In this document: positions 1,236 through 54,090 of the stretch, piece after piece
How positions within the stretch are numbered: position 1 is the first letter of the stretch
How the letters are laid out: every line of letters begins with the position of its first letter
DNA from: a virus
Taxonomy: Duplodnaviria > Caudoviricetes
DNA length: 64,000 nucleotides
Virus record (IMG/VR): IMGVR_UViG_3300026116_000035
Direction: 5' to 3' (one strand)
Translations under genes and position numbers: made by a program
Notes under the pieces: generated by a model
What the model was told of the DNA's origin: nothing
The model's input: only the letters and a program-made list of their open reading frames with translations
Databases searched by the model: none

Positions 1236-1613
1236 ATGAGTAAAAAATTAACTAATAAGCAAATTGAATTTTTCAAAAACCTTTTTCTAAAACAAAAAGA
1301 AGATATTGAAAATATATGTAAAAAAAATTGTGAAACTTCTGAAATTGATTTAGAAGGTGATGAAGTGGATATAATCCAAGCTTCCATTTTACACAATGTT
1401 GATTCAAAAATCTTAGAAAGAGAAGCTAAAAAATTGATTAAAATCAATATAGCATTAACCAAAATTGATAATGGAACTTTTGGAAACTGTGAAGATTGCG
1501 ATGAATTTATTACAATCAAGAGATTAGAAGCTTGTCCAGATACTCAATTTTGTATTTTCTGTGCACAAAAAGCTGAATTAGAAGCGAAAATGTTTTCTGG
1601 TAAAAAGATTTAA
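1236..1613 (+). CDS. dksA: DksA/TraR C4 zinc-finger protein
   Basis: Coiled coil with acidic tip GDEVD; GTFGNCEDC...RLEACPDTQFCIFC. Confidence 0.88.
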   Translation: MSKKLTNKQIEFFKNLFLKQKEDIENICKKNCETSEIDLEGDEVDIIQASILHNVDSKILEREAKKLIKINIALTKIDNGTFGNCEDCDEFITIKRLEACPDTQFCIFCAQKAELEAKMFSGKKI

Positions 1614-1684
1614 GTTGTTGAATTTACTGACTATTTTCAGTAAATTAATTAATATAATTAATTAAACGATAAATGTATAGGCAT

Positions 1685-1708
1685 GCAACCTCATATTATT
1701 GAGGTTGC
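1685..1708. repeat. perfect 9-bp inverted repeat upstream of clpP
   Basis: gcaacctca-tattat-tgaggttgc; no T tail. Confidence 0.7.
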
Positions 1709-1731
1709 TATTCAAGAGAAAGTAGTAATCA

Positions 1732-2400
1732 ATGCAGAAAATCAGTAAAACTAGGAATATCCATCCCATGATTTATGAAAAAACTCGAGACGGTGAGGTT
1801 CTGTATGATGTCTTTTCAAGATTAATTAAAGATAGGATTGTATTTTTATCTGGAAGTGAAGGTATTGATTGTGAAACAGCTGTCACTACTTCTGCAACTT
1901 TATTATTTCTTGATCATCAAAGTAAAACAAAACCAATTTCTATATATATAAATTCTCCTGGTGGTACTGTAACAGATGGTTTGTATACCATTTATGATAC
2001 AATGCAGTCAATACAAGCACCAATTAAGACGGTATGTATGGGGCAAGCTTGTTCTGCTGCTGCTGTTATTTTAGGAGCTGGTACAAAAGGCATGAGATAT
2101 GCTTTTGAAAATGCTGAAATAATGATCCACCAACTTCAAATTGGTGGTGGTGAACAATATAAACCAGCATCTGAAGTTATCAAGGAATCTGCTAGGATTA
2201 AACGATTAAATGATAAAATTTTAAAAACTATTGCTGATCATAGTGGCCAATCTTTCGAAAAAGTTAAAAACGATGTAACTGATGATTTTTATATGACAGC
2301 TCAAGAAGCATTAGAGTACGGTTTGATTGATGGTTTAATTAAAAAAACAAAAACTGTTTCAACTCCAAAGAAAGTTATGGGTAGAAGACGTAAAAGTTGA
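1732..2400 (+). CDS. clpP: ATP-dependent Clp protease proteolytic subunit
   Basis: DVFSRLIKDRIVFL, YINSPGG, GQACSAAA (Ser), IMIHQ (His), DFYMTAQEALEYGLID (Asp). Confidence 0.95.
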   Translation: MQKISKTRNIHPMIYEKTRDGEVLYDVFSRLIKDRIVFLSGSEGIDCETAVTTSATLLFLDHQSKTKPISIYINSPGGTVTDGLYTIYDTMQSIQAPIKTVCMGQACSAAAVILGAGTKGMRYAFENAEIMIHQLQIGGGEQYKPASEVIKESARIKRLNDKILKTIADHSGQSFEKVKNDVTDDFYMTAQEALEYGLIDGLIKKTKTVSTPKKVMGRRRKS

Positions 2401-2771
2401 TGTATAGTGATATTGAGGAAAATATTAGAAAAAATCTAATAATTTATCTCTCTAGTCATCAATGTACAGAGTGTTTTAAACCATATTCTGATAGTACATA
2501 TATTGAAATTGACGATCTTGCATTTTATTTTGCAGATAAAATATTCTATAAACTTGATTGTTCAGTTTCAAGAAATATAAATGCAATTAAAAAAAATGTA
2601 AATTATTTTATTCCAAAATCTTCAAGACAGGTATATTCATTAATTAAACCAAGATTACATGGAAATTCTTATAGAATTTGTATTACATGCAAATTTTGCT
2701 ATAAAACCATATATAAAGAATATAACATGTCTAAATTTGATGGAACTAAAATTTATTTAAATAATCAATAA
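2397..2771 (+). CDS. hypothetical protein with Cys motifs
   Basis: 124 aa; CTEC and CITCKFC; ATGA overlap with the clpP stop. Confidence 0.7.
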   Translation: MMYSDIEENIRKNLIIYLSSHQCTECFKPYSDSTYIEIDDLAFYFADKIFYKLDCSVSRNINAIKKNVNYFIPKSSRQVYSLIKPRLHGNSYRICITCKFCYKTIYKEYNMSKFDGTKIYLNNQ

Positions 2772-2773
2772 TT

Positions 2774-4258
2774 TTGCATGATTGTATGAATGAGTTTATT
2801 ATAACAGCTAGGAAAAGGTCTGATGATCCTGTTCAAGAAGCTTTAAGACAGCATAAAGACACATGGAATCATGAAGCTTCTTTACTTATTGCTCAACTAA
2901 TAGCATTCAAACGTGGATTAAATGGTAGAGGTGAGCCTAAGGTAGGATTACCTCCAGGATCTATAAAAGATCCTGTACCAAATGAAATTGGTTCTTATTT
3001 AGATCAATTAGCAGATCGTTATAATAGACTCATTTCAGATGCTCATAAAATTATTGAAGAACAGAATCATTATTCAGAAAACAGAAAAAAAGGATTAAAA
3101 GAACAAACTGCAAATTTTGATCCAGAAATAATGAAAATAGCTTCTTGGTGGGGAAGTAGAGCTTTAACTTATACTAAAAATCAATATTTAAATCCTAAAT
3201 ATTGGCTTTCTAAAAATGAATCCACTAAAATCAGAATGATAGTATTAAAAATATCTACTGATTTAATCAAAAAATTAAAAATTATTGATGGTGATATTGT
3301 ATCTAATGATATAAATGCAACACCAAATGCAGTATATGATTTTGATAAATTTGTATCGTCATTTAATAAATTATTAATTTCAAATTTGAAAAAAATAATT
3401 GAAATAGAGAAAATAAATGAAACTCAACATGCCGAAAACAGTTCGAAAAACAATTTCAAAGAAACTGTTAATGAATCAGGACGTGAAGATGAATCTGTAT
3501 TATCAGGAGAATTTGACTCCGCAGAAAAGTTTCCTAACATACGTGAAGAATCAGAGAGTAAAAATTCAGAAAAAATAGATATAAAGCAGATTTTATCAGA
3601 TATTGTTTATTGTGGACGATTAGTTGAGATTATGAATCTACTTAAAATAGATCAAAAAGATGTAATATTTTTCGAATCTAGTGTAAAAGCTCTAAGAAAA
3701 TTATTAGATAGTATCTCTATTTCTAATGAAGGTTCTTTCGATAATGCAATTAATTCTTATAATGATTTAAAATTATTATCGGCGAAATTATTAAAAGTTA
3801 ATAATGATTCTTTTTTAAAGCAATTAAGTCAAGCAAATGATATTTTACTTGCTAAAACTTCTGCAATTTCTTTAGATTTTGAAAAATTAGCAAAAAAATC
3901 GTTTAAACGGTTTCTTGATAGACAGAAACTAAAAATTTTACCAGATTCGATGGATAGAATTAAATTAGATTGTTCTAAAAAAATAACAAATTTAATTAAC
4001 TTAATAGATGATTTTCAAAATTTATTAGAAAAAAATGAACAAAATTTAGATGTTTTAATATCTAAAGTTAATAATATTATTGATGCAATTTCAGAAACAG
4101 CTGATGATTTATATTATTTGGCTAAAACTCACAATGATAATTATGAACAAAATAGATTAAATGGTAAACCTTCTACTAATTTAATTAAAACTGAAATGAT
4201 ACATAGATTAAAAAACTTCAAAAATGAAGTTGAATTATTAAAAACTAAATTAAAATGA
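2774..4258 (+). CDS. hypothetical protein, possibly virion/head-associated
   Basis: 494-aa helical ORF with K-x-A motifs (MKIASWW, EKLAKK); function inferred only. Confidence 0.7.
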   Translation: MHDCMNEFIITARKRSDDPVQEALRQHKDTWNHEASLLIAQLIAFKRGLNGRGEPKVGLPPGSIKDPVPNEIGSYLDQLADRYNRLISDAHKIIEEQNHYSENRKKGLKEQTANFDPEIMKIASWWGSRALTYTKNQYLNPKYWLSKNESTKIRMIVLKISTDLIKKLKIIDGDIVSNDINATPNAVYDFDKFVSSFNKLLISNLKKIIEIEKINETQHAENSSKNNFKETVNESGREDESVLSGEFDSAEKFPNIREESESKNSEKIDIKQILSDIVYCGRLVEIMNLLKIDQKDVIFFESSVKALRKLLDSISISNEGSFDNAINSYNDLKLLSAKLLKVNNDSFLKQLSQANDILLAKTSAISLDFEKLAKKSFKRFLDRQKLKILPDSMDRIKLDCSKKITNLINLIDDFQNLLEKNEQNLDVLISKVNNIIDAISETADDLYYLAKTHNDNYEQNRLNGKPSTNLIKTEMIHRLKNFKNEVELLKTKLK

Positions 4259-4650
4259 ATGATAAAGTAAAAATTGGAAATTATGTATTTGATACTCTTA
4301 TTGCAATAACTGAAGAAGAACATTCAAATGGATTAATGTGGAAGAAACCTCCAACGCCTATTATGAGTTTTCCATATGATAAATTAGATATACATAAGTT
4401 CTGGATGCAAAATACTATTGTTCCATTAGATATATTATTTTGTAGATGTGGTCAAGTAATAGATATACAAAAAGGTAAACCATATTCTATTGATCTTATT
4501 GGACCAGATGAACCAACGGATTTAGTTATAGAATTACCAGAAGGTACAGCGGATAAATTTAATATAACTATAGGATCAGAAGTTTCAATTAAATATTCTG
4601 TGCCAACTTTAAGTAAAAAAATTATAAAGAAACTAAATTTTACCTCTTGA
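4255..4650 (+). CDS. DUF192-family protein
   Basis: GLMW...MSFPY...FWMQNTIVPLDILF...VIELPEG is the DUF192 pattern. Confidence 0.85.
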   Translation: MNDKVKIGNYVFDTLIAITEEEHSNGLMWKKPPTPIMSFPYDKLDIHKFWMQNTIVPLDILFCRCGQVIDIQKGKPYSIDLIGPDEPTDLVIELPEGTADKFNITIGSEVSIKYSVPTLSKKIIKKLNFTS

Positions 4651-4676: not shown

Positions 4677-4682
4677 ATAAGT

Positions 4683-9275: not shown

Positions 9276-9572
9276 ATGAAATATTTATTAGGAACAAAAG
9301 ATAAAAAATGGTTCTTTAGATATCATGCAGAAGGATCAACTATAATTACAAGCGATCCGTTCCAAGCGTTATTAGTTAATAATATAGATGATATTCCATC
9401 TGATTGGATTAAAAATACTATAAAATGTGCTGGTAAATTTATTGATTCTAATGGTCCAGAAATGAATAAACTTCTTGATGAAGTTGACGGAATTAAAATT
9501 GAAGAAAACGATTTATGTATTTATGAATTTGAAACGGAAATTAAATATTCTTTAAAAGAATTAGAAAAATGA
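9276..9572 (+). CDS. hypothetical protein
   Basis: 98-aa ORF. Confidence 0.7.
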   Translation: MKYLLGTKDKKWFFRYHAEGSTIITSDPFQALLVNNIDDIPSDWIKNTIKCAGKFIDSNGPEMNKLLDEVDGIKIEENDLCIYEFETEIKYSLKELEK

Positions 9573-10672
9573 GTAATATTAAATACGATATTGATCTTGA
9601 CCAAATTTATAAAAATTTTAGTCAAAATTGGTTAAAAGATAATACAATTTATCAAGTTGTTCATGGCAGTCATGCATATGGTACAAATATTAAAGGATCA
9701 GATATTGATATTAGAGGTATTTGCATTCCTCCGATAAATTATTTATTTGGTGTTTTAGATAAATTTGAACAGGCCGTAACTAATGAACCTTATGATTGTA
9801 CTATTTTTGGTATACAAAAATTTGTATATTTAGCTATGCAGGGTAATCCAAATGCATTAGAGTTATTATTTGTTGATTTTGATGATATCATCTATTCTAA
9901 TGAAATAGGTAATTCTTTATTAAATATTAGAGATTTATTTATTTCTAAAAAATGTAAACATACTTTTTCCGGTTATGCTGCAAGTCAATTAAAACGTATA
10001 AAACTTCATAGAAATTATATCCTTAAAGGTGAACTTAAAAAACCTGAAAGATCTGATTATAATTTGCCGGATACACATAAATTAATTCCTGAGCATCAAC
10101 AGCTAGAAATAGAAGCTCAAATTAAAAAAGTTTTGGATGGTTGGACTATTGATACTACTGGAATGGAGCCGGCTGCTGAAATTAAGTTTAAAAATGAATT
10201 AGAAGATGTTTTAATTGATTTAAAATTAAATCATGAAGATTTTCATATGTATGCTGCTAGAAGTTTAGGACTGAATGATAATTTAACCGAAGCTTTTCAA
10301 AGAGAACGAGCATATAAACTTGCTTTGCATGAATATAAATGTTGGCAAACGTGGAAATTGGAAAGAAATAAAGCTCGTTTTGAATTGGAAGAAAAGTATA
10401 CCTATGACACGAAACATGCTAGCCATCTCATACGTCTTACTTTAATGTGTAAGGAAATACTTGGGACGCATAAAATTAATGTAAAACGTCCTGATGCTGA
10501 ATTTCTTTTAGCTATTCGAAATGGTTTATGGTCTTATGATGAATTAATGAGTTGGTATGAAAATCAGGCTACTATATTAGATGATTTGTATCAAACCTCA
10601 AATTTACGTAATGAGCCGGAACGTGTTAAAATTAATGATTGGTTAATCAATTCTTTGCAAGATTATAAATGA
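9569..10672 (+). CDS. DNA polymerase beta-superfamily nucleotidyltransferase (RlaP/YcgL-like)
   Basis: HGSHAYGTNIKGSDIDIRG, GNPNALELLF, YDTKHASHLIRL. Confidence 0.88.
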   Translation: MSNIKYDIDLDQIYKNFSQNWLKDNTIYQVVHGSHAYGTNIKGSDIDIRGICIPPINYLFGVLDKFEQAVTNEPYDCTIFGIQKFVYLAMQGNPNALELLFVDFDDIIYSNEIGNSLLNIRDLFISKKCKHTFSGYAASQLKRIKLHRNYILKGELKKPERSDYNLPDTHKLIPEHQQLEIEAQIKKVLDGWTIDTTGMEPAAEIKFKNELEDVLIDLKLNHEDFHMYAARSLGLNDNLTEAFQRERAYKLALHEYKCWQTWKLERNKARFELEEKYTYDTKHASHLIRLTLMCKEILGTHKINVKRPDAEFLLAIRNGLWSYDELMSWYENQATILDDLYQTSNLRNEPERVKINDWLINSLQDYK

Positions 10673-12225: not shown

Positions 12226-12813
12226 GTGTATAAGTTTATGAAATTATCCGATTGGGCTAAATTACAAGGTATTTCTTACTTAACTGCTTATAAATGGTTT
12301 AAATCTGGTAAAATACCAAACGCAAAACAATATGATACAGGTACCATTCTAATATCTCTAGAAAAAGAAAACATATCAGATAATAATTCTTGTGTTATTT
12401 ATTGTAGAGTTTCTAATCAATCTCGAAAAAAAGAGTTAGAATACCAAGTTCAAAGATGTGAAGATTTTGCAAGGTCTAAAGGCTTATCAGTTAATAAAAT
12501 ATATAAAGAAGTAGCATCTGGTATGAATGATAAGCGCAGAGAATTATTAAAAATGATAGATTCGAATCCTAAAATTATTATCGTTGAAAATAAAGACCGA
12601 TTAACTAGATTTGGATTCAATTTTTTAGAAAAACTTTTATCTAAACTTGATTGTAAAATCATTGTCATTAATTATGATAAAGAAGATGAGGTTGATTTAA
12701 TTAAAGATCTTGTATCTATTATTACATCATTTTGTTGTAGATTATACGGATTAAGAAGAAGTAAAAATAAAATAAATAAAATTAAAAAAATTTTAAATGA
12801 ACAAAACGTATAA
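12226..12813 (+). CDS. tnpA: IS607 transposase TnpA (MerR-type HTH + serine recombinase)
   Basis: KLSDWAKLQGISYLTAYKW, VIYCRVS, EVASGMNDKR, ENKDRLTRFGF, DLVSIITSFCCRLYG. Confidence 0.95.
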   Translation: MYKFMKLSDWAKLQGISYLTAYKWFKSGKIPNAKQYDTGTILISLEKENISDNNSCVIYCRVSNQSRKKELEYQVQRCEDFARSKGLSVNKIYKEVASGMNDKRRELLKMIDSNPKIIIVENKDRLTRFGFNFLEKLLSKLDCKIIVINYDKEDEVDLIKDLVSIITSFCCRLYGLRRSKNKINKIKKILNEQNV

Positions 12814-16478: not shown

Positions 16479-16544
16479 TAAATTTGTTTGCGTCGAGTTC
16501 TGATTTACTTTGCACTACTTAAAGTAAGAGGTTCAATTTTAAAT

Positions 16545-17903
16545 ATGTCAACTAAAATAAATATCGATACAAAATCTGATCTAAATGAAGATACAATTGA
16601 AAGTCAAGAATCTTTAAATAAAAAACGATTTCAATCTCTGATTCCTAGATTTGCATGGAATCAATCTGGGATAGATTATCTAAAAAATAGACCTGAGGCA
16701 AATTTAATTGATTTGATGCATTGGGTCAAAAATAATTATTCGAAATATTGTAAATCAAATTCCTCACAAATGGAAGTTTATATACATAATAAAATTGTAA
16801 TCGATGGCTCCTTTATGCAATTTGCCGAAGAAAACAATATTAAAATTGAATGTTTAATGAGAGATTCTATTGCTTCTTGGAAAACTGATAAGCATGATCA
16901 TGAGCATTTTATGGCTCAAGGTATTTTTAGAATTTACAATGATAATTTTGATTTTCTTCATTGTGCTTTATTTCATAAAGGTAATCAAAATGAAGATGAA
17001 GTATCATTTTTTACGATTGTATCAAATGATGTATTTCAAGATTATGTTGATTTACGTAATCAATATGATAAATGGCTTGTTGCAAGAGACAGGGATCATC
17101 TTGAAGTTCATGTAATTGGAGCTGAAGGGTATCCGTATACTCGAGATATGTCTTGGGATGATGTATTCTTGGAAGAAGATTTAAAGGCTGATATTCGAAA
17201 TTATATTGAAGGTTTTTTGTCTTCCCGTCACATTTATGAAAAAATGAAGGTTAGTTGGAGAACTGGAGCTTTATTTTATGGTTCTCCCGGTTGTGGTAAG
17301 ACGTCTTTAATTAAGACTATAATTTCTAATTACAATTTTAAGCCTGTTACTGTTCAATCTGGTACCCAAACCAATGATGATACGATCACTGAGGCATTTG
17401 AATATGCAGCAAGTCAAGAACCAGCTCTTCTTTATATTGAAGATTTAGATACTTTGCTTGGACAGACGATTAGTTTATCGCATTTTTTAAATATGATGGA
17501 TGGTGTTTCGACTAAAAGGGGGTTGATGGTAATTGCTACATCAAATGATTTAAGTAAATTAAAAGAATCGGTTACAGATAGACCGTCTCGATTTGATCGT
17601 AAATGGGAAATTCCATTGCCGGATAAAGACATTTCTTTTAAATATTTAAAGAAATGGTTCGGGAATATATTAAAGGATGCCGAATTGAAGAAATTAGTAA
17701 AAGAAACGTATGAAAATAATTTTTCTTTTGCTTATTTAAAGCAATTATATATTGATTCAGTATATAATGCACTTTCTGAAAAACGTGAAGTTCCTAATCT
17801 TAATGATGTAAATATCGTTAAAAAGCGTATGTTGAAGGATAAAGAAAACGTTAAAAATGGATTTGAAACCACTTTAAATAGTGGTGAAATCGGTTTTGGT
17901 TGA
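16545..17903 (+). CDS. AAA+ ATPase
   Basis: Walker A GSPGCGKT, Walker B LYIEDLD, DRPSRFDR; start set to ATG 16545. Confidence 0.9.
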   Translation: MSTKINIDTKSDLNEDTIESQESLNKKRFQSLIPRFAWNQSGIDYLKNRPEANLIDLMHWVKNNYSKYCKSNSSQMEVYIHNKIVIDGSFMQFAEENNIKIECLMRDSIASWKTDKHDHEHFMAQGIFRIYNDNFDFLHCALFHKGNQNEDEVSFFTIVSNDVFQDYVDLRNQYDKWLVARDRDHLEVHVIGAEGYPYTRDMSWDDVFLEEDLKADIRNYIEGFLSSRHIYEKMKVSWRTGALFYGSPGCGKTSLIKTIISNYNFKPVTVQSGTQTNDDTITEAFEYAASQEPALLYIEDLDTLLGQTISLSHFLNMMDGVSTKRGLMVIATSNDLSKLKESVTDRPSRFDRKWEIPLPDKDISFKYLKKWFGNILKDAELKKLVKETYENNFSFAYLKQLYIDSVYNALSEKREVPNLNDVNIVKKRMLKDKENVKNGFETTLNSGEIGFG

Positions 17904-17922: not shown

Positions 17923-18276
17923 TTGAAAAAGAATATTAAAGTTGAAAAAAATGCATCAGGGTTTCGTCCAATAGATTTATCTTATTTTTCGCCATTAGAA
18001 GTTCATGTGCGAAATGGCAGAATTGATGAAGCTACGAAAATTTTTAAATCTATTGTTCAAAAAGAACAAGTTTTAACGTTATATAATGATAAATCTCGTT
18101 ATGTTAAACCTTCAGTTAAAAAGCGAATGAAATCAGCAGCAGCTCAACAAAGATTAAAAGCGGCTGAAATTAAGCAAAAATTAATTGATTCTGGTGAATA
18201 TGAAAAACGAAAGCAAAAGAAGGAATTAAAGCGTTCTTCTAATAAGTCAGAAAAGAAGTCAAATGATGATTTATAG
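17923..18276 (+). CDS. rpsU: ribosomal protein bS21 homologue
   Basis: EVHVRNGRIDEATKIFKSIVQKEQVL...RYVKPSVKKRMKSAAA fits bS21; extended N- and C-termini. Confidence 0.8.
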   Translation: MKKNIKVEKNASGFRPIDLSYFSPLEVHVRNGRIDEATKIFKSIVQKEQVLTLYNDKSRYVKPSVKKRMKSAAAQQRLKAAEIKQKLIDSGEYEKRKQKKELKRSSNKSEKKSNDDL

Positions 18277-22156: not shown

Positions 22157-22654
22157 ATGAAATGTCTTTTATTAAATTCAGCTTATGAAGGGTTAGCTTT
22201 TATACCTGAAATTAAAGGTCTCAAACTCTACTTCAATGATAAAGTAGAAGTATTATCTAATTGGGACGAAGAAATTTCATGGACTTCGGGGTCTATGAAA
22301 ATTCCAGCTGTAATTAAATTAAAATATTATATTAAATTCATTCCTAAACGAGTGCCATTTAATAGGATGGCCGTTTTTCGCCGAGATCTATACGCTTGTC
22401 AATATTGTAATAAGGTTGGTACATCGAACACTTTAACTATTGATCATATAATCCCTAAATCAAAGGGAGGATTGCATGATTGGTTAAATACTGTAGCTTG
22501 TTGCGAAAAATGTAATTTTTATAAAGATAATCGAACTCCAGAAGAAGCTGGAATGAGATTGATAAATAAGCCACATGTTCCAGATTTACGATTGAAAAAT
22601 CTTCTTCCGGAAATGCAAACGGTTCATAAAGATTGGGAATTTTGGTTAAAATGA
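22157..22654 (+). CDS. HNH endonuclease
   Basis: RDLYACQYC...LTIDHIIPKSKGG...WLNTVACCEKCNFYKDNRTPEEAGM. Confidence 0.92.
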   Translation: MKCLLLNSAYEGLAFIPEIKGLKLYFNDKVEVLSNWDEEISWTSGSMKIPAVIKLKYYIKFIPKRVPFNRMAVFRRDLYACQYCNKVGTSNTLTIDHIIPKSKGGLHDWLNTVACCEKCNFYKDNRTPEEAGMRLINKPHVPDLRLKNLLPEMQTVHKDWEFWLK

Positions 22655-23523
22655 AAAATTTAAAATTAATTGATTCAAAAAAATCTCAAATTGAAGATGT
22701 ATATAAATTAATTTTTGAAGATGATGATGTTCTTGAAGTTTCCTATATTAGAAAAGGAGATGGAAAAGATATTTTATGCGTTCCAAGTCAGACTTCATGC
22801 AATCTCAAATGTGTTTTTTGCCATCTCACAGGACTAGGCATCAAAGCAAAAAATTTAAATTCTGAAAGAATTATCAATTTAATTGAAGCTTCATTGAAAT
22901 ATCAACTGCCAGCAAATAAAACTTTATTAATTAGCTATATGGGTGCTGGTGATGGTTTAATGAATTTAGATGGTGTCTTAGGCTCAGCCCTTCATATGCG
23001 AGACCATAGTTCTTTTGAAGATATTAGAAATCAATATAATACAATACGATTTGCTATTTCCACCATTATACCTAATGAAATTAAATTTAATCAATTCAAG
23101 AAATCAATTAAGCAACATAAATTAGACTTTAAGCTACATTGGTCTTTACATTCTTTGGATTCTGTAAGTAGAAAAAATTTAATGCCAGCAGCTTTAAATA
23201 TTCCCGATGCATTAAAAATGATTGATAATTATATAGAAGAAACAGGAAATCCAGTAGAAATTCATTATACGTTGATGGATGAAATTAATGATAGAGAAGA
23301 AGATTTAAATAATTTTATTAAATATGTAAGTAAAAAACCTACAATTAAATTTTTAAAGTTTGCCGAAAAGAAAAATGAACCATTAATGCGTGGTTCAAAA
23401 CGAGTAAATTGGTTTAAATCCGAATTAGAAAAAAATGGATTTAAAGTGGAAGTTTATAGTCCTCCGGGTTCAGATATTGGCTCGAGTTGTGGTCAATTTT
23501 TACTAGATCAATATGTTAAATAG
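22651..23523 (+). CDS. RlmN/Cfr-like radical SAM RNA methyltransferase
   Basis: CVPSQTSCNLKCVFC (CxxxCxxC), SYMGAGDG, SLHS, C-terminal GSDIGSSCGQ. Confidence 0.8.
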   Translation: MKNLKLIDSKKSQIEDVYKLIFEDDDVLEVSYIRKGDGKDILCVPSQTSCNLKCVFCHLTGLGIKAKNLNSERIINLIEASLKYQLPANKTLLISYMGAGDGLMNLDGVLGSALHMRDHSSFEDIRNQYNTIRFAISTIIPNEIKFNQFKKSIKQHKLDFKLHWSLHSLDSVSRKNLMPAALNIPDALKMIDNYIEETGNPVEIHYTLMDEINDREEDLNNFIKYVSKKPTIKFLKFAEKKNEPLMRGSKRVNWFKSELEKNGFKVEVYSPPGSDIGSSCGQFLLDQYVK

Positions 23524-28762: not shown

Positions 28763-29311
28763 TTGAACAATTTTCAAAATAATAGCAAAAAACGAGACGT
28801 AACTTTAATTAATAATCAAATTAGATCAGCAAAAGTACAGTGTATTGATCATTTGCAGAATAATTTAGGATTAATTGAAACTTACAAAGCTCTTCAAATT
28901 GCTAGGGATAATGAGTTAGATTTAGTACAAATTTCTTTTAACGCTAAAGAAAATGTACCAACTTGCAAAATTTTAGATTATGGTAAATATAAGTACCAAA
29001 TTTCTAAAAATCAAAAAATGGCTGCAAAAAAGCAACGAGAATCTGAAATTAAAATTAAAGAAATAAAGTTGCGGCCATCTACAGAAATTAATGATCTAAA
29101 AGTAAAAGCTGCAAAAACTCAAGAAATATTGGACGATGGTGATAAAGTTAGGGTAAATATTGTATTTAAAGGTCGAGAAGTTAATTATAAAGAAATAGCT
29201 TTTGAACAATTTAATACATTCATTCAGTTAGTTGAAAATGCTGATGTAATAGAAAAACCGTCATTAAATGGTAAAATTCTTACTGCTTTAATTGGTAAAA
29301 AAGCTGCATGA
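28763..29311 (+). CDS. infC: translation initiation factor IF-3
   Basis: INNQIR, DLVQI...PTCKILDYGKYKY, KEIKLRP..EINDL..K, GDKVRV...FKGRE; TTG start. Confidence 0.95.
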   Translation: MNNFQNNSKKRDVTLINNQIRSAKVQCIDHLQNNLGLIETYKALQIARDNELDLVQISFNAKENVPTCKILDYGKYKYQISKNQKMAAKKQRESEIKIKEIKLRPSTEINDLKVKAAKTQEILDDGDKVRVNIVFKGREVNYKEIAFEQFNTFIQLVENADVIEKPSLNGKILTALIGKKAA

Positions 29312-29811
29312 TAATTACTGACGAAAAATTACTTCGCGTAAAATGTGAAAATGTTTTACCAGAAGAAATCGGGTCTTTAATAGATCAACTGGAAAGAGAA
29401 CTAAAAAGAGCTGGTAACGGGATTGGTTTAGCTGCTCCGCAAATTGGTATAGCTAAAAATGCTGCAATAATTCGAATTAATCAAAATTATTCTATGAATT
29501 TAATAAATTGTAGAATAGAAAAAGGTTATGATGAAGAAATTTTTGAAGATGAAGGATGTTTATCTTTTCCTGGTAAATATGTAAAAACATTACGATATTC
29601 AGAGATTTATGTTGTTGATAACTTAGGAGAGGTAAATTCGTTTATTGCTCAAGGATTACCAGCAGTTGTAATACAGCATGAATTAAATCATTTGAATGGA
29701 ATTTTGTTGCCAGATTTAGAAATAAAACAAGCAGTTAAATCAAAAGTTCGGCCAAATGATCCTTGTTCTTGCAATTCAGGTAAAAAAGCAAAACGATGTT
29801 GTTTTAAATAG
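29308..29811 (+). CDS. def: peptide deformylase with C-terminal SEC-C motif
   Basis: GIGLAAPQIG, EGCLSFPG, QHELNHLNG; tail RPNDPCSCNSGKKAKRCC. Confidence 0.93.
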   Translation: MIITDEKLLRVKCENVLPEEIGSLIDQLERELKRAGNGIGLAAPQIGIAKNAAIIRINQNYSMNLINCRIEKGYDEEIFEDEGCLSFPGKYVKTLRYSEIYVVDNLGEVNSFIAQGLPAVVIQHELNHLNGILLPDLEIKQAVKSKVRPNDPCSCNSGKKAKRCCFK

Positions 29812-29819: not shown

Positions 29820-30065
29820 ATGAATAAAGATAATGATGAATTAGAAAAAATTTCAGCTGAAGTTAAAAAACTATCAGAAGATAGAGATCTTTTTGATGCA
29901 CTTTTAGCAGAACTATTATTAAAAGTTAATACAGTAGAAAAAATATTAATTGATAATAAAATTATTTCTATTGAAGAATATAATAAAGTGTTTACTAATT
30001 CTGTTAATAAAATGACTGATATTTTAAACCAAACTAAAAAAATTCCAGAAGGTCAAGTAAATTGA
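29820..30065 (+). CDS. hypothetical protein
   Basis: 81-aa ORF. Confidence 0.7.
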   Translation: MNKDNDELEKISAEVKKLSEDRDLFDALLAELLLKVNTVEKILIDNKIISIEEYNKVFTNSVNKMTDILNQTKKIPEGQVN

Positions 30066-30367
30066 TTAAATTAGAAAAAGCTGAAGATTTAAATGTAAGT
30101 AATGGTCTTTTTGCTATTAAATTTACTGCTGAATGGTGTGGTCCGTGTAAAAAACAGCAGCCAAATATTGATAAGATGGAAGAAGAATTTCCAAATGTTC
30201 AATTTATTTCTATTGATGTTGATTTAATTAAGGATTTTAATACAACTTATAATGTAAAATCGTTGCCTTTATTAGTCTTAGTTAAAGATGGAGTTGAAAT
30301 AAATAGAATTGTAGGGATGACATTAGTAGCACCGTTGAGAACTGCCTTTATAAATTTCACTAAATAA
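30062..30367 (+). CDS. trxA: thioredoxin
   Basis: FTAEWCGPCK, VKSLP, DG.EINRIVG. Confidence 0.93.
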   Translation: MIKLEKAEDLNVSNGLFAIKFTAEWCGPCKKQQPNIDKMEEEFPNVQFISIDVDLIKDFNTTYNVKSLPLLVLVKDGVEINRIVGMTLVAPLRTAFINFTK

Positions 30368-30734: not shown

Positions 30735-30750
30735 TTTTATTTTAAATAAA

Positions 30751-31107: not shown

Positions 31108-31108
31108 T

Positions 31109-31438: not shown

Positions 31439-31439
31439 T

Positions 31440-31703
31440 ATGACTAAAGTATATTCAAAAAAAGACGAATATGGAAATATTCGTTGGTACAAAACAGGTA
31501 CAAATCTTCTTCATAGGGAAGATGGTCCAGCTTTAGAATGGAATGATGGAACAAAATGGTGGTATCAAAATGATAGACGCCACAGAACAGATGGCCCTGC
31601 AATAGAATATATTAATGGATTTAAATATTACTATTTAAATGGGAAATATTATCCAGATATTAAAACCGATAAAGAATGGATTATATTTCAAATTATAAAT
31701 TAA
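31440..31703 (+). CDS. HR-x-DGPA repeat protein (array B, 2 repeats)
   Basis: HREDGPA, HRTDGPA; ends TDKEWIIFQIIN. Confidence 0.85.
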   Translation: MTKVYSKKDEYGNIRWYKTGTNLLHREDGPALEWNDGTKWWYQNDRRHRTDGPAIEYINGFKYYYLNGKYYPDIKTDKEWIIFQIIN

Positions 31704-41411: not shown

Positions 41412-42611
41412 ATGTTAGAATTAAATGAAGTTGAATATTGTAAAGTAAAAGTAAAATATACCGCTGATTCAGATAAAGTTAAGGAAAAATATAAAAAGGC
41501 TATTTCTGAATTAAAGAAATTGCCAGTTCCAGGCTTTCGACCCAATAAAGCTACTGATCAGGCTATTAGAAATCATTTTAAGGCTAAAATTGACGCCTGG
41601 GTTAAACAGGAAATGATCTCTGAATCTTATGAAGATATTTTATTTGAAACTAAAATACAACCTATTGGATTTCCTCAAACTTTAGATTTGAAGCTTGATG
41701 GCAATGATTTTAATTGTGAATTTCTCTTTTTAAAGAAGCCTGATTTTGAATTAAAAGAAGTTAAAGGTTTAGAAATACCTAAACCACATCAAAATATTAC
41801 ACAAAATGATTACGTAGAAGAAATGCTCCAAGAAATACGTACTCAAAATAGTAATGCCGTCCCTTATGCTGATGGAGATTTTGTTCAGGCCGGCGATACT
41901 ATTACTATGGATTATACCGTAGATGATCAAGTTGCTGAAGGTGAATTATATAAAGTTGGAAATAATCTTTTGCCTGAATTTGATGATAATATTATTGGTA
42001 TGGCTCCTGGTGAAAGTAGAGAATTTGATGTACTTAATCCCACCACAAATGCAAAATCTCACGTTAAAGTTCTTCTACACATGGGTATGAAAAAAACTTT
42101 ATGTGGTCTAGATGATGAGTTAGCTGTTAAAGTTGGATTAAAAGATTTAGCCGAACTTCGCAAGGTAGTTGAGGGTATTTCAAGTAATCGTTTGAAGCAA
42201 CATACAGATGCACAAATTGCCGATCAAATTAAAAAGCGATTAGTTGATATGCATGATTTTGAACTTCCGGAATGGTTAACAAATATGGAATTACAGCAGG
42301 TAGCTCAAAGAATGAGTATTGATCTTGCTACAGCTTCAGATCAAACTAAATCTGATTTAATTACTCAAGCAAAAAATAGCGTAAAATTTGCGTTGATTTT
42401 AGATTCTATTCGAAAAAATACTCCAGAAGCTGATTTATCTGATGAAGAGATTTTAAATATAATTAAAGCGAAAGTTGCAAATCAGGTTCAGGATGTTGAT
42501 GGATTTTTGCAAGAATCTCAGAAAAACGGGAAATTACTAGGTTTTGTTGCTCAAGTTAGAAATGAAGTTACATTACAATATTTAATTGATAATGCTAAGA
42601 TTGTAGAATAA
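41412..42611 (+). CDS. tig: trigger factor
   Basis: PVPGFRPNKA ribosome-binding loop, FKBP-like GDTITMDY...FDDNIIGM.PGESREF, helical C-domain. Confidence 0.88.
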   Translation: MLELNEVEYCKVKVKYTADSDKVKEKYKKAISELKKLPVPGFRPNKATDQAIRNHFKAKIDAWVKQEMISESYEDILFETKIQPIGFPQTLDLKLDGNDFNCEFLFLKKPDFELKEVKGLEIPKPHQNITQNDYVEEMLQEIRTQNSNAVPYADGDFVQAGDTITMDYTVDDQVAEGELYKVGNNLLPEFDDNIIGMAPGESREFDVLNPTTNAKSHVKVLLHMGMKKTLCGLDDELAVKVGLKDLAELRKVVEGISSNRLKQHTDAQIADQIKKRLVDMHDFELPEWLTNMELQQVAQRMSIDLATASDQTKSDLITQAKNSVKFALILDSIRKNTPEADLSDEEILNIIKAKVANQVQDVDGFLQESQKNGKLLGFVAQVRNEVTLQYLIDNAKIVE

Positions 42612-46300: not shown

Positions 46301-46989
46301 TTTATCCTTGGCCTGAAACTGGGGAATGGTCAATTTCTGAAATAAATGCATTAGAGCATTTTTATATTGGTGAAGGATTAACCGGATCTAAATTTGATGT
46401 TTATAAAGGATTTTTTAGTAAACATCATCGTAATTTTGCTGATTTTGTAGGTTTTCATCCGCCACCACCTGAAGGTATGGATGAAAAAGATCTTAAAAAT
46501 TATGTTAAAAAAGTCAATTTTGTAGAGGGTATAGTTAAATCTATATTTGAATTTAAGATTAAAAAGGAAAAGAGTAAGTTATTTGGTCAGACGATGGCTA
46601 AAATATCTATTGAAGATCCTTATGGAAATGAATTAAGTATAACTTGCTTTCCAGAAAAGTGGGAATACTTAAAGGAAAGAATTAAAGATATTAATGCTAA
46701 ACTTAAATTTGAAATAGGTATGGGTTTATCTATGACAGGTAATTTACAATGGTGGGAAGGAAATTTATCATTAATATTTGATGAGTTAGCTAATGCATGT
46801 CCTCCACCACAACTTCCTGCTGATTTAAAGGCCAAGAAAACTGAAACGGTAAAAAAGGCAAAAGAAGAGGTAGTTGATGAAAATATGGATAGAAATGAAT
46901 TATTAGAAGAAATTGAAGATGAATTGGCAGAATCTGGATTTGCTGATTTAGATGATGAAAATGATTTAGAGGAACATAATTTTGAATGA
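43351..46989 (+). CDS. dnaE: DNA polymerase III alpha subunit (family C)
   Basis: PHP SLHNHTTYS, GPGRGSVGGS, catalytic PDCDSD, GTHAAG, KMDLLGL, YSFNKSHA; no intein-sized insert. Confidence 0.97.
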   Translation: MTEEIVKDSETVEIKEYPYVSLHNHTTYSIFQSLIKPADLFKRAKELGQKAIAVTDKNTCAGFWESLKASKETGVKLIAGLEISFVDDVSILDSKLRNVVLIAKNAQGYQNLLKISKIGYDNFIIARKNPLPRIDWKILEEYKEGLLCITGDTSGIIPRLLNDKKFEEAEKQALRLKGIFGDDLAFELQPNALKRALGNYNEIADQAQANRQLKKLGEKLNIRLIAATNSYYINPEQYDAHDTWLAMQSSQPKSSGNRLSFNVNDFYIKSGKEVFEFFKRTQGYELNGDGEIFATKLLKDTIDFAKKCENPEWIDPRYSNPSGKELPTFPVKDQEDYIEFKQWLIKQKNQTLEEDVQYLRYKCITNYKTIIANNPKYKNVADIYKKRIYEELDVLESQGFSGYMLIVADFLEWARKNKVSVGPGRGSVGGSLIGYLLGIHEADPIKYGLIFARFHSKMKISAPDCDSDISKINRHLVEKYLIEKYGSSHVASISTFNTLTPKPYVKAIARTFLYGGDRSEAVKIGTMLADTIPAEAKTVSRMFEYSPLLNEYCKKYKELKEYSDAFGKNPIAIGTHAAGLIISKRELTGLVPLRRDKEGSVSLEYEKEGAEENGMVKMDLLGLATLDVIDNTYKLIKKVNKIIPYDKFDYESYDKDAYDLISNGDTMGVFQFGTSGGTIELCKRYQPKSIEDLAIITTLARPAAKEIRDDFFKVKNGEQEISYFHPLLERAFSKTLGFPLYDESLLILAEDVAGWDLNEADKLRKLTKEKGKNPAKAKKWKEEFISNANERKNIKPEIAEKIWVDIIEPFGKYSFNKSHAVLYSMISYHTAYLKAHYRFEFLVANLMEQVSSKAQKAKNDVVKYKEEIRKFNAKIVTPNINTSGAVYTIIGENTLATGLNALKYMGQDAIPEILAKRPFKSFEDFLTRTDSSKVKAPAIQALAASGALSEFNMPRKQMFLYAADYKKKLQVWLKKKPEKRGEFVYPWPETGEWSISEINALEHFYIGEGLTGSKFDVYKGFFSKHHRNFADFVGFHPPPPEGMDEKDLKNYVKKVNFVEGIVKSIFEFKIKKEKSKLFGQTMAKISIEDPYGNELSITCFPEKWEYLKERIKDINAKLKFEIGMGLSMTGNLQWWEGNLSLIFDELANACPPPQLPADLKAKKTETVKKAKEEVVDENMDRNELLEEIEDELAESGFADLDDENDLEEHNFE

Positions 46990-47285
46990 TAAAATATATT
47001 AAATATAATATTAAATATATTGAATATGATAATAATGATTTAATATCAATGATTCAGGATATTAAGAAAGATACACATAAAATTGATATTTATTATCATG
47101 CCAAATTTGATTGTGAGGAATTCGGATTTCGTTTACGTGATAATGATGAAGTATGGTTTGTTATTTTGCCTTTTAAAGAATGTAAAAAAATAATTGAATC
47201 TAGATTAAATATAAAATATAGTCAATTATATGATTATATGAATTTAACCAAAGAAGAATTTATTATTAAAAATATAATAGATTAA
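46986..47285 (+). CDS. small protein with C-terminal signature (array C)
   Basis: Ends NLTKEEFIIKNIID; ATGA overlap with dnaE. Confidence 0.8.
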   Translation: MIKYIKYNIKYIEYDNNDLISMIQDIKKDTHKIDIYYHAKFDCEEFGFRLRDNDEVWFVILPFKECKKIIESRLNIKYSQLYDYMNLTKEEFIIKNIID

Positions 47286-47307
47286 TTGTATAATTAAAGA
47301 TTTAATT

Positions 47308-47589
47308 ATGATTACTGGTAAATATTATAATTTCAATAGATATGATAATTTACTTTATATGGTAGAAGATATGAAAAATTCTGGCCATAAAATTGTAAAA
47401 TGTGATAATTATTTTGAATTAGAATTTAAATCACATTCAGAATCAACTGCTAAATTTTGTTGGATGATTAGGTTAGATTTAGTTAAAAAAAATAATTCAT
47501 TAAATAAATTAAACATAACAATAGATCAAATAGTTGATTATGTTAACTTAACCGATGAAGAATTTATTATTAAAAATATAATAGAATAA
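47308..47589 (+). CDS. small protein with C-terminal signature (array C)
   Basis: Ends DYVNLTDEEFIIKNIIE. Confidence 0.8.
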   Translation: MITGKYYNFNRYDNLLYMVEDMKNSGHKIVKCDNYFELEFKSHSESTAKFCWMIRLDLVKKNNSLNKLNITIDQIVDYVNLTDEEFIIKNIIE

Positions 47590-47601
47590 ATATAATTTAA
47601 T

Positions 47602-47898
47602 ATGACTAAATTTTTTAAAAATGAGCATTATTTTAATAGATATACTAATTTATCTTTTATGGTAAGTGATATGAAAGCGCTAAATCATAAAATTATAAAA
47701 ATTAATAATTCCATTGATTTAATATTTAAAACATTTTCACAAGCAAATTATAAAATACATTTTGTTATGAGTTCAAGTTTAATTACAACGAATTCACTAA
47801 AAGAATTAAAAAATGAATTAAATATAACTTTAGATCAAATAGTAGATTATGTTAATTTAACTGAAAAAGAATTTATTATTAAAAATATAATAGAATAA
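47602..47898 (+). CDS. small protein with C-terminal signature (array C)
   Basis: Ends DYVNLTEKEFIIKNIIE. Confidence 0.8.
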   Translation: MTKFFKNEHYFNRYTNLSFMVSDMKALNHKIIKINNSIDLIFKTFSQANYKIHFVMSSSLITTNSLKELKNELNITLDQIVDYVNLTEKEFIIKNIIE

Positions 47899-48888: not shown

Positions 48889-48889
48889 T

Positions 48890-51306: not shown

Positions 51307-51315
51307 GGAAAATAA

Positions 51316-52032: not shown

Positions 52033-52063
52033 TCTTAATAAAATATAATTTAAAATAGTTCTT

Positions 52064-52094
52064 AAGGCAGTTAATTAATTTTAACTGCCTTTTT
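52064..52094 (+). terminator. intrinsic terminator
   Basis: aaggcagttaa-ttaatt-ttaactgcctt plus T run. Confidence 0.85.
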
Positions 52095-52108
52095 GTTATG
52101 ATAGCTGT

Positions 52109-52375
52109 CTATTTTTTGGATATTTGTTGATTTTGATAATATGTTTTATGTAAATTTTTGTTTTTATCATTATAAATAATAGCATTTTTTTGAAATTTAT
52201 TTATTTCATTTTTATAAAAAAGTTTATAAATAAAATTTACTATATAATCCGTAATTTTTAATTTAAATTGTTTTATTTTATATTTTATTGTAAGTAACTT
52301 TATTTTAATTTTTAAATTCGTTAGCCAAAAATTGTATTGTATTTTATTAATAATATTCAAAATTTTCATTTTCAT
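52109..52375 (-). CDS. possible small K/I/N-rich protein
   Basis: Fills the gap between SSB and ruvC on the opposite strand; low complexity, may be spurious. Confidence 0.35.
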   Translation of the reverse strand: MKMKILNIINKIQYNFWLTNLKIKIKLLTIKYKIKQFKLKITDYIVNFIYKLFYKNEINKFQKNAIIYNDKNKNLHKTYYQNQQISKK

Positions 52376-52480
52376 TGATTAAATAAATCTAATTCATTTG
52401 TTTTTTAATTTCGGTACTTATTTAATTATATATCATCATTTTAAAAGTATAAATGTTATGCATACGGATATATAATTTAT

Positions 52481-53119
52481 ATGTCAAAAATTATAATGGG
52501 TATAGATTGTTCTACGACTACTATAGGTGTATCGGTTATTGAGGAGACTGATGATGGTTATTTATTATTTAAACACGTAGAGCATTATAATCCTATAAAA
52601 AAGAATACTCATCCTTTAGATACTTTAAAATGGGTGAAAGAGTATATTTTATCTAAACTTGAAGAATTTTCGCCTGATGAAGTGGGTATAGAAGAATTCA
52701 TTAAATTTATGAAAGGTAATTCTTCGGCAGATTCTACAATTTCTTTGGCTATTATAAATAGATTAGTGTGTATGACTATTTATGAATATTTTGATAAAAA
52801 GCCTTGGATTTTAAATGTAAATACTATTAGAGCATTAATAAAACCAAAAAATTATGAATTTCCAAGAGTTTCAAAAGAACAAATTCTTCCTTTAGTTTGT
52901 AAAATATTAAATATAGAATGGAAATGGTTAAAGAACAAAAAAGGCAAAATTGAAGATTTCAATTTTGACCGCAGTGATTCTATTGCAGTATCTATAGCTT
53001 TATCATATGGTTTACGCTCTGGTAAAATTAAATCAACGAATGGTATGAAAATTAAAAAATCTAAGAAAAAAGCAATTAAAAAAGATAAACCACAAAATCG
53101 AGCGAAGAAGATGGTATAG
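52481..53119 (+). CDS. ruvC: RuvC-like Holliday junction resolvase
   Basis: IMGIDCSTTTIG, VGIEE, DRSDSIAVS. Confidence 0.85.
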   Translation: MSKIIMGIDCSTTTIGVSVIEETDDGYLLFKHVEHYNPIKKNTHPLDTLKWVKEYILSKLEEFSPDEVGIEEFIKFMKGNSSADSTISLAIINRLVCMTIYEYFDKKPWILNVNTIRALIKPKNYEFPRVSKEQILPLVCKILNIEWKWLKNKKGKIEDFNFDRSDSIAVSIALSYGLRSGKIKSTNGMKIKKSKKKAIKKDKPQNRAKKMV

Positions 53120-53157
53120 CTTCAATATGTGAAAATCTAAAATTAAGAGATATTTAA

Positions 53158-54090
53158 ATGAATTCACAAGAAGCTTATAAAATATTAGAATTGCAACCTT
53201 CAGCTACTCCGGAAGAAATCCAAGCTGCATTTAGAAAATTAGCTAAAAAATATCATCCAGATTTAAATAAAGATAATCCTGATGCAGAAAGTAAATTTAA
53301 AGAAATTAATTCAGCTTATCAATTATTAACAAATCCTTCTCCTAGACAACAGGATTTTAATAATTCTGTTAATATAAATTTTCAGGATCTTTTTAATCAA
53401 GCATTTGGTGGTAATCCTTTTGGCGGCGGATTCGGTGGTTTTGGTTCTAATCCTGCCCCCATTGCACCTAATAATACTACAATTTCTTTTGCTGAATCTG
53501 TTTTAGGTGTAGAAAAAGAATTAGAAATTACACAAAATCAAACTTGTGGTGTTTGTCATGGAAATGGTTCTACTTCTGATGTAAATAATTGTAATTTTTG
53601 TCAGGGTAAAGGGGCAAAACAAGCTTCATTTTCGCGTGGAGCTATGAGTTTTATTGAACAGTGCCAAAAATGTAAGGGAACTGGCAAAATTCAAAATCCG
53701 TGTAAACCTTGTGAGGAAAAAGGATTTACATCGATTAAAATGAACAAAAAAATTAAAATTCCTGGTGGTGTATTAAATAATAATGTATTAAAAATTCCTG
53801 GTGGATTTATTAAAATAAATGTAGAAGCTGATTCTGATATGAGATTGGAAGATGGTAATGTAGTTTCCGATATAAATATTTCTCTTTTAGAAGCTTTAAA
53901 GGGAACGTTAAAACCTGTAAAAACGGTAAAAGGGGAAATGAATTTAAAAATACCCGCAAATATTAAAAATGGAAATTCTGTACAGGTACATGGGTATGGA
54001 GTTGAGGGACATGGTAGTCATATTTTTAATATAAGTGTAAATTACCCACAGGATACTCAAAAATTAATTGAGTTGCTTGAGAGTGAGTAA
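53158..54090 (+). CDS. dnaJ: DnaJ (Hsp40) co-chaperone
   Basis: J domain with HPD, G/F-rich linker, CxxCxGxG repeats, C-terminal domain. Confidence 0.93.
   Translation: MNSQEAYKILELQPSATPEEIQAAFRKLAKKYHPDLNKDNPDAESKFKEINSAYQLLTNPSPRQQDFNNSVNINFQDLFNQAFGGNPFGGGFGGFGSNPAPIAPNNTTISFAESVLGVEKELEITQNQTCGVCHGNGSTSDVNNCNFCQGKGAKQASFSRGAMSFIEQCQKCKGTGKIQNPCKPCEEKGFTSIKMNKKIKIPGGVLNNNVLKIPGGFIKINVEADSDMRLEDGNVVSDINISLLEALKGTLKPVKTVKGEMNLKIPANIKNGNSVQVHGYGVEGHGSHIFNISVNYPQDTQKLIELLESE

Follow-up and report, generated by a model that had tools for sequence, protein, structure and literature searches.

Why should a bacteriophage carry genes for proteins that serve the initiation of translation together with others that process, fold and degrade the polypeptides that result? 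This question is raised by 64,000 nucleotides of the IMG/VR virus record IMGVR_UViG_3300026116_000035 (Duplodnaviria; Caudoviricetes), which are the whole stretch of DNA analysed here and which we call the window. A first-pass annotation, made from the letters alone, had recognized genes for initiation factor 3 (IF3, infC), ribosomal protein bS21 (rpsU), peptide deformylase (PDF, def), trigger factor (TF, tig), DnaJ, ClpP, thioredoxin (trxA), a DksA-like protein and an RlmN-like enzyme. It had proposed that these nine genes constitute a single pipeline for nascent chains, with which the phage re-tools both the entry and the exit sides of the host ribosome. Translation genes of huge phages are known, and attention has so far been given to tRNAs, synthetases, initiation factors and bS21. 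The lineage described below also keeps tunnel-exit factors (PDF and TF in this phage, methionine aminopeptidase, MetAP, in its relatives), a recruiter of DnaK and a ClpP core, and leaves the ATP-driven partners to the host. It offers a natural system in which one can ask where protein maturation becomes limiting for a large viral proteome. What can be said most safely is that a clade of huge phages has kept, by vertical descent, a ribosome-proximal set (bS21, IF3, a zinc-tailed PDF, MetAP and TF) together with DnaJ and ClpP. Beyond this, we consider it probable that the set supports translation and protein maturation on host ribosomes.

The window corresponds to bases 12034-76033, on the minus strand, of one 131,451-bp contig. 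Another assembly contains a contig of 390,274 bp on which identical TF and PDF proteins are encoded beside identical neighbour genes, and the 131-kb contig thus represents one part of a huge-phage genome of at least ~390 kb. Gene identities were taken from Pfam and NCBIfam (Table 1). The nine positions proposed in the first-pass annotation are all starts of open reading frames (ORFs) on the + strand, save 22651, an internal ATG (the first) of an ORF that opens with TTG at 22633. The proposed identities held as well: eight genes match their families strongly, and the RlmN-like gene is clear only against the NCBIfam RlmN and Cfr models. IF3, bS21 and TF pass NCBIfam equivalog cut-offs, and ClpP, PDF, DnaJ, the DksA-like protein, thioredoxin and the RlmN-like protein score below theirs, each matching its own family best.

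Five relatives are represented by CheckV-complete viral genomes of 435-481 kb. TF, PDF, bS21, DnaJ, ClpP and the DksA-like gene are each present in all five, and IF3 in four. Gene order and spacing in these genomes are colinear with the window; in one of them (G002) the order is DksA, ClpP, bS21, IF3, PDF, TF, DnaJ, and a survey of co-occurrence found the set in the same order throughout the clade. Catalytic residues are invariant across relatives at protein identities of 33-67%. The differences between strains in infC, def, sbcD and orf327 comprise 24 synonymous and 4 non-synonymous changes (7:2 in infC and def), and these genes are under purifying selection. The gene set is lineage equipment and not a one-off.

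Table 1. Genes of the window that are discussed in the text, in order of position.
Feature	Coordinates	Strand	Size and start	Family match and other details
DksA-like C4 zinc-finger protein	1236..1613	+	125 aa	Pfam zf-dskA_traR, E 1e-10
ClpP	1732..2400	+	222 aa	Pfam CLP_protease, 196 bits, E 5e-58; single active copy
Classic AAA ATPase, Cdc48/VAT/YjoB-like	16488..17903	+	471 aa	Pfam AAA
bS21 homologue (rpsU)	17923..18276	+	117 aa	Pfam Ribosomal_S21, E 1e-12
RlmN/Cfr-family radical-SAM methyltransferase-like	22633..23523	+	ORF from TTG 22633; likely start ATG 22651	
IF3 (infC)	28763..29311	+	182 aa; TTG start	Pfam IF3_N 5e-22, IF3_C 3e-20
Peptide deformylase (def)	29308..29811	+		Pfam Pep_deformylase, E 3e-27 (residues 1-137)
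Small helical protein	29820..30065	+	81 aa	No Pfam match; lies between PDF and the thioredoxin-fold gene
Thioredoxin (trxA)	30062..30367	+	101 aa	Pfam Thioredoxin, E 2e-18; WCGPC at residues 25-29
Trigger factor (tig)	41412..42611	+	399 aa	Pfam N domain 1e-22, C domain 6e-8
Type I DnaJ	53158..54090	+	310 aa	Pfam DnaJ, DnaJ_CXXCXGXG, DnaJ_C; E 3e-22

Among the exit-side proteins, the deformylase has a composite architecture. Its catalytic part displays GIGLAAPQ, EGCLS and HELNH, the last of these being a departure in motif 3. Past this motif, the protein continues through a basic linker into a metal-binding motif of the SEC-C/SecA type (residues 150-166, CSCNSGKKAKRCC), which has the form CxC-x8-9-C(C/H) with basic residues and meets the Pfam SEC-C cut-off (21.9 versus 20.4 bits). 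Residues Q45, C84, H124, E125 and H128 of the enzyme and C153, C155 and C164 of the tail are invariant across 29 relatives, and the zinc tail was present in 10 of 11 relatives. The structural model (pLDDT 92.8, with a flexible linker of low confidence) matches the folds of bacterial and cyanophage deformylases. Over 100 metagenomic clusters, annotated PF01327+PF02810, show the same combination, which a published phage of 635 kb also has. Among the matches listed, no deformylase fusion was found at 80 bacterial loci that bear a SEC-C motif, and every bacterial candidate for the two-part architecture proved to be a different SEC-C protein; that the fusion is confined to viruses is not established.

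The deformylase of E. coli sits near the tunnel exit through its C-terminal helix. The phage enzyme seems to have had this helix swapped for another ribosome-binding module. The metal-binding domain of SecA binds 70S ribosomes, crosslinks near uL23 and also binds SecB (PMC6620043), and the corresponding domain of YecA (AscA) also binds 70S ribosomes and crosslinks near uL23 (preprint 10.1101/2020.07.21.215244). It is probably the SecA-type zinc tail, in place of the usual C-terminal helix, that keeps the phage PDF at the exit port.

Downstream of def, a gene of 64-85 codons fills the gap before the thioredoxin-fold gene across the clade, its final Asn being nearly invariant, and the position of thioredoxin after PDF and this small ORF is kept in all relatives, so that the three form a conserved trio. 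In 6 of 10 relatives (L046, L048-L052) both active-site cysteines of the thioredoxin-fold protein are lost, WCGPC being replaced by WMP(Y/F/T)x, and its conserved role is therefore probably not a redox one. The third factor of the bacterial exit site, MetAP, was sought in the relatives. A match to M24 peptidases was obtained in all five complete genomes, and the three relatives from which the protein was extracted all pass the equivalog cut-off for type I MetAP. Since the relatives encode MetAP along with PDF and TF, the lineage holds all three of the bacterial exit-site factors.

Trigger factor passes the tig equivalog TIGR00115 (185.7 versus 180.2 bits, residues 10-391) and consists of an N-terminal ribosome-binding domain, a short FKBP domain and C-terminal arms. 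When its AlphaFold2 model (pLDDT 87.5) was compared with known structures by Foldseek, the top matches were full-length TF of E. coli and T. maritima (2vrh, 1w26, 3gty; E ~1e-20 to 1e-21), the N domain giving a TM-score of 0.77 and the FKBP domain also finding matches. Within the ribosome-docking loop, 38 relatives show no variation at G41 and R43 and retain F42 in at least 90% of cases; the form GFRxGK occurs in 130 of 202 family members, with the final Pro of the consensus often substituted. The family comprises proteins of ~400 residues that share 31-67% identity, many of them on contigs of 100-460 kb, and identity drops sharply, to at most 27%, between the family and bacterial TFs. A profile search retrieved at least 150 clusters (at the 50% identity level) with E<1e-60, and 30 viral contigs in IMG/VR carry this TF. 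These contigs were found with an alignment of 12 sequences; a single-protein search gave no match there, and an alignment of 38 sequences was too divergent. Clade-specific peptide patterns did not find the phage-type TF in 185,579 species genomes.

TF had been described in the first-pass annotation as uncommon among phages. This is borne out by 50,697 phage records, in which there were 14 weak matches (23-27% identity), mostly to unannotated fragments or bacterial-looking records; TF and MetAP are nearly absent from the cultured-phage collection, save for records that resemble bacterial contigs. Phylogenies against bacterial homologues had also been suggested as a means of predicting the phylum of the host. 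The TF tree separates the phage family from 30 bacterial TFs with an SH-aLRT of 100, and yields neither a host phylum nor a donor, the bacterial sample being small and biased.

On the initiation side, IF3 exceeds the NCBIfam infC equivalog TIGR00168 by a wide interval (140.9 versus 60 bits) and contains N and C domains with the linker between them. Its stop codon overlaps the start codon of the deformylase gene (ATGA), which suggests translational coupling of infC and def. The two genes adjoin each other in four relatives (G001, G002, G004 and G007) and are separated by ~20 kb in four others. The closest phage matches of IF3, at 40-45% identity, are in Agrobacterium phage Atu_ph07 and Sinorhizobium phage Phosso. 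The bS21 protein, present in 11 of 12 related records, passes the S21p equivalog TIGR00030 (44.1 versus 28.95 bits) over residues 26-78 and is lengthened by an N-terminal extension of ~25 residues and a basic C-terminal extension.

The RlmN-like gene is of another kind. It matches Pfam weakly (24.9 bits, under the cut-off), and its best NCBIfam matches, RlmN (E 3e-30) and Cfr (E 2e-26), are far under their cut-offs (106 versus 290 and 93 versus 530 bits, respectively). The cysteines CxxxCxxC (C56, C60 and C63), C49 and C286 are present, and the first model position aligned is 79; ~78 N-terminal residues, and with them the N-terminal RNA-binding domain, are absent. Because this domain is missing and the scores are so low, the target of the enzyme cannot be named. 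The gene was found in only three of the five complete relatives. An HNH endonuclease gene (22157-22654) directly precedes and overlaps it; this endonuclease and a GIY-YIG endonuclease encoded close to the primase gene (60810-61724) are probably homing endonucleases.

Two further proteins of the set act in bacteria together with ATP-driven machines. DnaJ, found in 12 of 12 related records, has a J domain with HPD, a short G/F region, four zinc motifs (the fourth being CKPCEEKG) and a C-terminal domain, and is ~65 residues shorter than bacterial DnaJ. ClpP has the triad Ser108/His133/Asp185. A role for this ClpP as a prohead protease was considered and rejected: it scores 214 bits with the ClpP model versus 75 bits with the head-maturation model, and its gene is ~70 kb from those of the portal and terminase. 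Scans of six-frame translations with hidden Markov models, on which all absences in the relatives rest, found neither HSP70 (DnaK), GroEL, SecB and peptidyl-tRNA hydrolase nor a convincing ClpX/ClpA-type (AAA_2) ATPase in the five complete relatives. Since HSP70 and ClpX/ClpA were not found, DnaJ and ClpP must use partners that are either supplied by the host or phage-encoded and unconventional.

Several observations concern the surroundings of clpP. In seven relatives (G003, G005, G006, G008, G009, G011 and G012; L155-L161) there is a tandem pair of ClpP genes, of which only the downstream copy is active, the upstream one being ClpR-like and lacking Ser and His; one is reminded of cyanobacteria and plastids with their ClpP/ClpR rings. 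In the window, clpP is followed (2397-4650) by three overlapping ORFs, of 124 aa, 494 aa and a DUF192 protein, that may be co-transcribed with it; the first two have no Pfam match, and the 494-aa ORF has no PHROG match either. Directly upstream of clpP, in all five complete relatives as well, is the DksA-like gene. DksA is a transcription factor. The phage protein aligns over its full length to the NCBIfam DksA models at a score below the cut-off (69 versus 105 bits), with a finger of C85, C88, C106 and C109 and a tip, DxxDxI, in which D42 and D45 are kept and the Ala of DxxDxA is replaced by Ile.

How might these proteins work together? In the reading that we prefer, the phage proteins would dock on host ribosomes and host partner machines in the canonical manner. 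bS21 and IF3 would serve the initiation step on the small subunit, and PDF and TF, with type I MetAP in the relatives, would act at the tunnel exit. DnaJ would have to recruit host DnaK, and ClpP to pair with a host unfoldase or with a phage AAA ATPase. The set would thus keep initiation, N-terminal processing, folding and turnover going for a very large phage proteome as host expression declines. This reading agrees best with the intact catalytic sites and docking motifs; the first-pass annotation had raised the possibility of catalytically dead proteins, and the departures are those noted for PDF motif 3, the DksA-like tip and the N terminus of the RlmN-like protein. Its proposal that both sides of the ribosome are re-tooled gains support on the exit side from the SecA-type tail of PDF, the GFR loop of TF and the MetAP of the relatives, and the re-tooling is otherwise something that we infer. 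Should the proteins bind host ribosomes, phage control of translation would begin with initiation and extend as far as co-translational maturation. Three members of the set, namely the DksA-like, thioredoxin-fold and RlmN-like proteins, are probably separate modules and not steps of one pipeline. Two molecular novelties lend themselves to tests: a deformylase that a SecA-type zinc domain would tether, and a family of TF confined to viruses.

A number of points weigh against this reading. Ribosome binding, enzymatic activity, timing and the benefit of the set are inferred. PDF falls under its equivalog TIGR00079 (92.8 versus 103.95 bits), the C-terminal part of the model being absent; DnaJ is well below its equivalog score (194 versus 377 bits) and ClpP is below both curated scores (NF001368, 214 versus 249 bits; TIGR00493, 195 versus 309 bits). 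The docking loop of this TF is GFRPNKAT, whose last residues deviate from the consensus GFRxGxxP. MetAP is not encoded on the 131-kb contig of this phage, and none of the best 120 of 1842 MetAP homologue clusters is on the 390,274-bp contig. DnaJ and ClpP have roles outside translation in phages, in the remodelling of replication complexes and in attack on host proteins. In addition, the hints about the host conflict. The terminase is only 26% identical to those of Bacillus phages; in a biased sample, metagenome-assembled genomes (MAGs) of Clostridia supply the nearest bacterial PDFs; and one MetAP relative carries the label of a Flavobacteriaceae MAG. A Shine-Dalgarno sequence of the AGGA type precedes ~21% of the 198 genes predicted on the whole contig, versus 4% in the background, and 25 genes of the contig, including infC, rpsU and trx, start with TTG; this low use of Shine-Dalgarno sequences bears on the host and also on the possible role of the phage bS21 and IF3.

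A further adverse point is the arrangement of the nine genes, which are spread across 53 kb at intervals of 10-16 kb amid genes for replication, recombination and repair. By this arrangement the nine are not one unit, and their reading as one coordinated pipeline is weakened. The arrangement also favours an alternative in which the genes are independent auxiliary genes of host origin without a functional link, the word pipeline being a mere label. DnaJ would then serve the replication complex or virion assembly, host takeover would be the task of ClpP with the DksA-like protein, a DNA enzyme would have the thioredoxin fold as its structural cofactor, and IF3, bS21 and PDF would be generic boosters of translation. 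What is conserved locally is not one block but the pairs DksA-ClpP and AAA-bS21 and the trio PDF-orf81-Trx, and the DksA-like gene is accordingly coupled to ClpP and not to the ribosome genes. Neither thioredoxin, with its active site lost in six relatives, nor the patchy RlmN-like gene behaves as part of the set to which they had been assigned, and ClpP, DnaJ and IF3 are sporadic and separately distributed in jumbo phages (PMC7824862). Independence does not, however, explain why TF, PDF, bS21, DnaJ, ClpP and MetAP occur together in all five complete genomes at 33-67% identity, nor that PDF, MetAP and TF have one common physical site of action in bacteria, nor that PDF has gained a second type of ribosome-binding module. 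We regard independence of the genes as an unlikely account, although one with a serious claim to attention, and prefer joint support of translation and maturation.

A more elaborate alternative concerns the AAA ATPase encoded next to bS21. Its gene ends 19 nt before rpsU, and in 10 of the 10 relatives that have an orthologue this immediately precedes bS21. A profile search against the Protein Data Bank placed VAT, YjoB, AFG2 and p97 on top, and the N-terminal domain gave merely sub-threshold leads to BCS1_N/AAA_assoc. The protein ends in ...EIGFG; three relatives share with this phage a C-terminal tail of the form IG[FIL], six have KY[FL] and one has neither form. As a lead only, we take the former to recall the ClpP-docking tripeptide and the latter the HbYX tails that dock on the proteasome. 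The ATPase would, in this alternative, strip host bS21 or another platform protein from the 30S subunit and so let in the extended phage bS21, or else its IGF/KYF-type tail would attach it to the phage ClpP, the two forming a new unfoldase-protease pair; with the zinc-tailed PDF, MetAP and TF as a phage-specific exit station, the result would be a dedicated population of ribosomes. A complex prediction with three copies of ClpP and the last 77 residues of the ATPase scored 0.01, which speaks neither for nor against binding. We hold this combination to be rather improbable, and canonical action on host ribosomes in general to be the better guide.

The exit-site proteins could also be directed against the host. 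The zinc-tailed PDF and TF might occupy the uL23 site or bind SecB, blocking targeting by host SecA and the signal recognition particle (SRP) as well as host TF, with ClpP degrading host or defence proteins. TF, SecA and SRP do all use the uL23 site, metal-binding domains of the SecA type bind SecB as well as ribosomes, and phage ClpP has been proposed to be an anti-host weapon (PMC7824862). A pure blocker, however, would not need the catalytic residues of PDF and ClpP that are conserved clade-wide, nor the full three-domain TF that has been retained with its substrate-holding arms, and SecB is not encoded. Interference of this kind strikes us as improbable to a slightly greater degree still, and support of phage protein synthesis as the better explanation. 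Finally, a cellular or plasmid replicon, such as that of a reduced symbiont with ordinary housekeeping genes, is refuted for practical purposes: the many informational genes of bacterial type (DnaE, TopA-like, RecA-like, IF3, bS21) and the label 'provirus' of two relatives in IMG/VR are outweighed by the portal protein, large terminase, rIIA/rIIB and RNA ligase encoded on the same contig, the lack of rRNA and of ribosomal-protein operons beside just two tRNAs, the crowding of nearly all long ORFs on one strand among many tiny ORFs, the CheckV-complete viral relatives and the failure of clade-specific patterns to find the phage-type TF in 185,579 species genomes, so that the viral origin assumed in the first-pass annotation stands.

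The source is best explained as an uncultured huge phage of soil or rhizosphere, the window covering part of its backbone of replication and early genes. The DNA of the phage, together with strains diverged by ~3%, was found in several soil and rhizosphere runs; none of the listed runs containing it is recorded as RNA. One run, which may or may not be of RNA, has short contigs on the stretch, one of them within def. The record is classed as a virus; CheckV estimates the completeness of the contig at 31%, a terminal repeat is absent, and an FtsK-like ATPase is encoded with the phage genes outside the window. The window has a G+C content of ~28% and no tRNAs, and its long ORFs are closely packed, nearly all of them on the + strand.

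Several other features of the window were recorded. Two overlapping genes, one for a serine resolvase (12226-12813) and one for a TnpB/Cas12f-like protein (12797-14083), have the layout of an IS607-type element, which sits in the phage backbone just upstream of a topoisomerase gene. In soil runs the depth of the contig is 2- to 3-fold higher at 30.7-32.0 kb (region 30423-31703), and many assembly joints tie 31.1-31.3 kb to 47.26-47.57 kb (regions 30423-31703 and 46986-47898); together these point to a repeated family of small genes at two places that breaks assemblies. At 54068-58923 there are ~20 consecutive back-to-back genes for proteins of 66-88 aa without a family match. An RNA-repair nucleotidyltransferase of the RlaP type is encoded at 9569-10672, and with the RNA ligase elsewhere on the contig (L002:2626-3855) this suggests a capacity for tRNA or RNA repair beside the translation genes.

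It was of interest to compare the set with published phages. Huge phages encode IF1, IF3, S1, S4, S21, L7/L12 and PDF (Al-Shayeb et al. 2020, Nature, PMC7162821); the main text of that paper makes no mention of TF, chaperones, Clp or DnaJ. In its supplementary GenBank files, the automatic names 'Trigger factor', 'Methionine aminopeptidase' and 'DnaJ' occur in at least 11 genomes, including SR-VP_PHAGE_40_16 (426 kb, listed as a Judaphage) and BM_PHAGE_CIR_35_55 (438 kb), a protein of which clusters with listed Judaphage genomes in the supplementary trees (PMC7162821). The first 44 residues of the TF of BM_PHAGE_CIR_35_55 match our TF family profile with a probability of 99.1%. Our phage probably belongs to the lineage that includes the published Judaphage genomes, which carry the same TF family and are of similar size. 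The phage TF genes are thus public but undescribed, and a literature search found no paper on a phage-encoded TF or a deformylase-SEC-C fusion. In jumbo phages, ClpP, DnaJ domains and IF3 have been reported as sporadic, with recruitment of host Hsp70 predicted and ClpP read as anti-host (Iyer et al. 2021, PMC7824862), in a text that leaves TF and the aminopeptidase unmentioned.

Set beside these systems, the present lineage resembles the Judaphages and other huge phages of Al-Shayeb et al. in encoding IF3, bS21 and PDF; their paper does not describe a conserved set for the exit site, a deformylase with a zinc tail or the pairs AAA-bS21 and DksA-ClpP. The cultured jumbo phages of Iyer et al. 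also have ClpP without a matching unfoldase and a DnaJ predicted to recruit host Hsp70; in them the genes are patchy, whereas in this clade they are core and stand together with TF and MetAP. Compared with bacterial Tig (1w26, 2vrh, 3gty), the phage TF has the same three domains, a model that superposes on the full-length structures and a shared GFR, but it is at most 27% identical, has a shorter FKBP domain that is missed by Pfam and belongs to a separate virus-associated clade; in many bacteria tig lies beside clpP-clpX, and in the phage it does not. The deformylases of cyanophage S-SSM7 (3uwa; Frank et al. 2013, PMC3660681) and Vibrio phage Vp16 (PMC5591237) share the type 1B-like core of our PDF (TM-score 0.82 for the fold match to 3uwa), and all three are without the long C-terminal helix of the bacterial enzymes. 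Here, by contrast, a basic linker and a SEC-C zinc motif replace the missing helix. The same CxCxSGx(K/R)xKxCC motif follows a flexible basic linker in the C-terminal domain of SecA and its copies in YecA (AscA) and YchJ, whereas in this lineage the zinc domain is joined to an enzyme of N-terminal processing.

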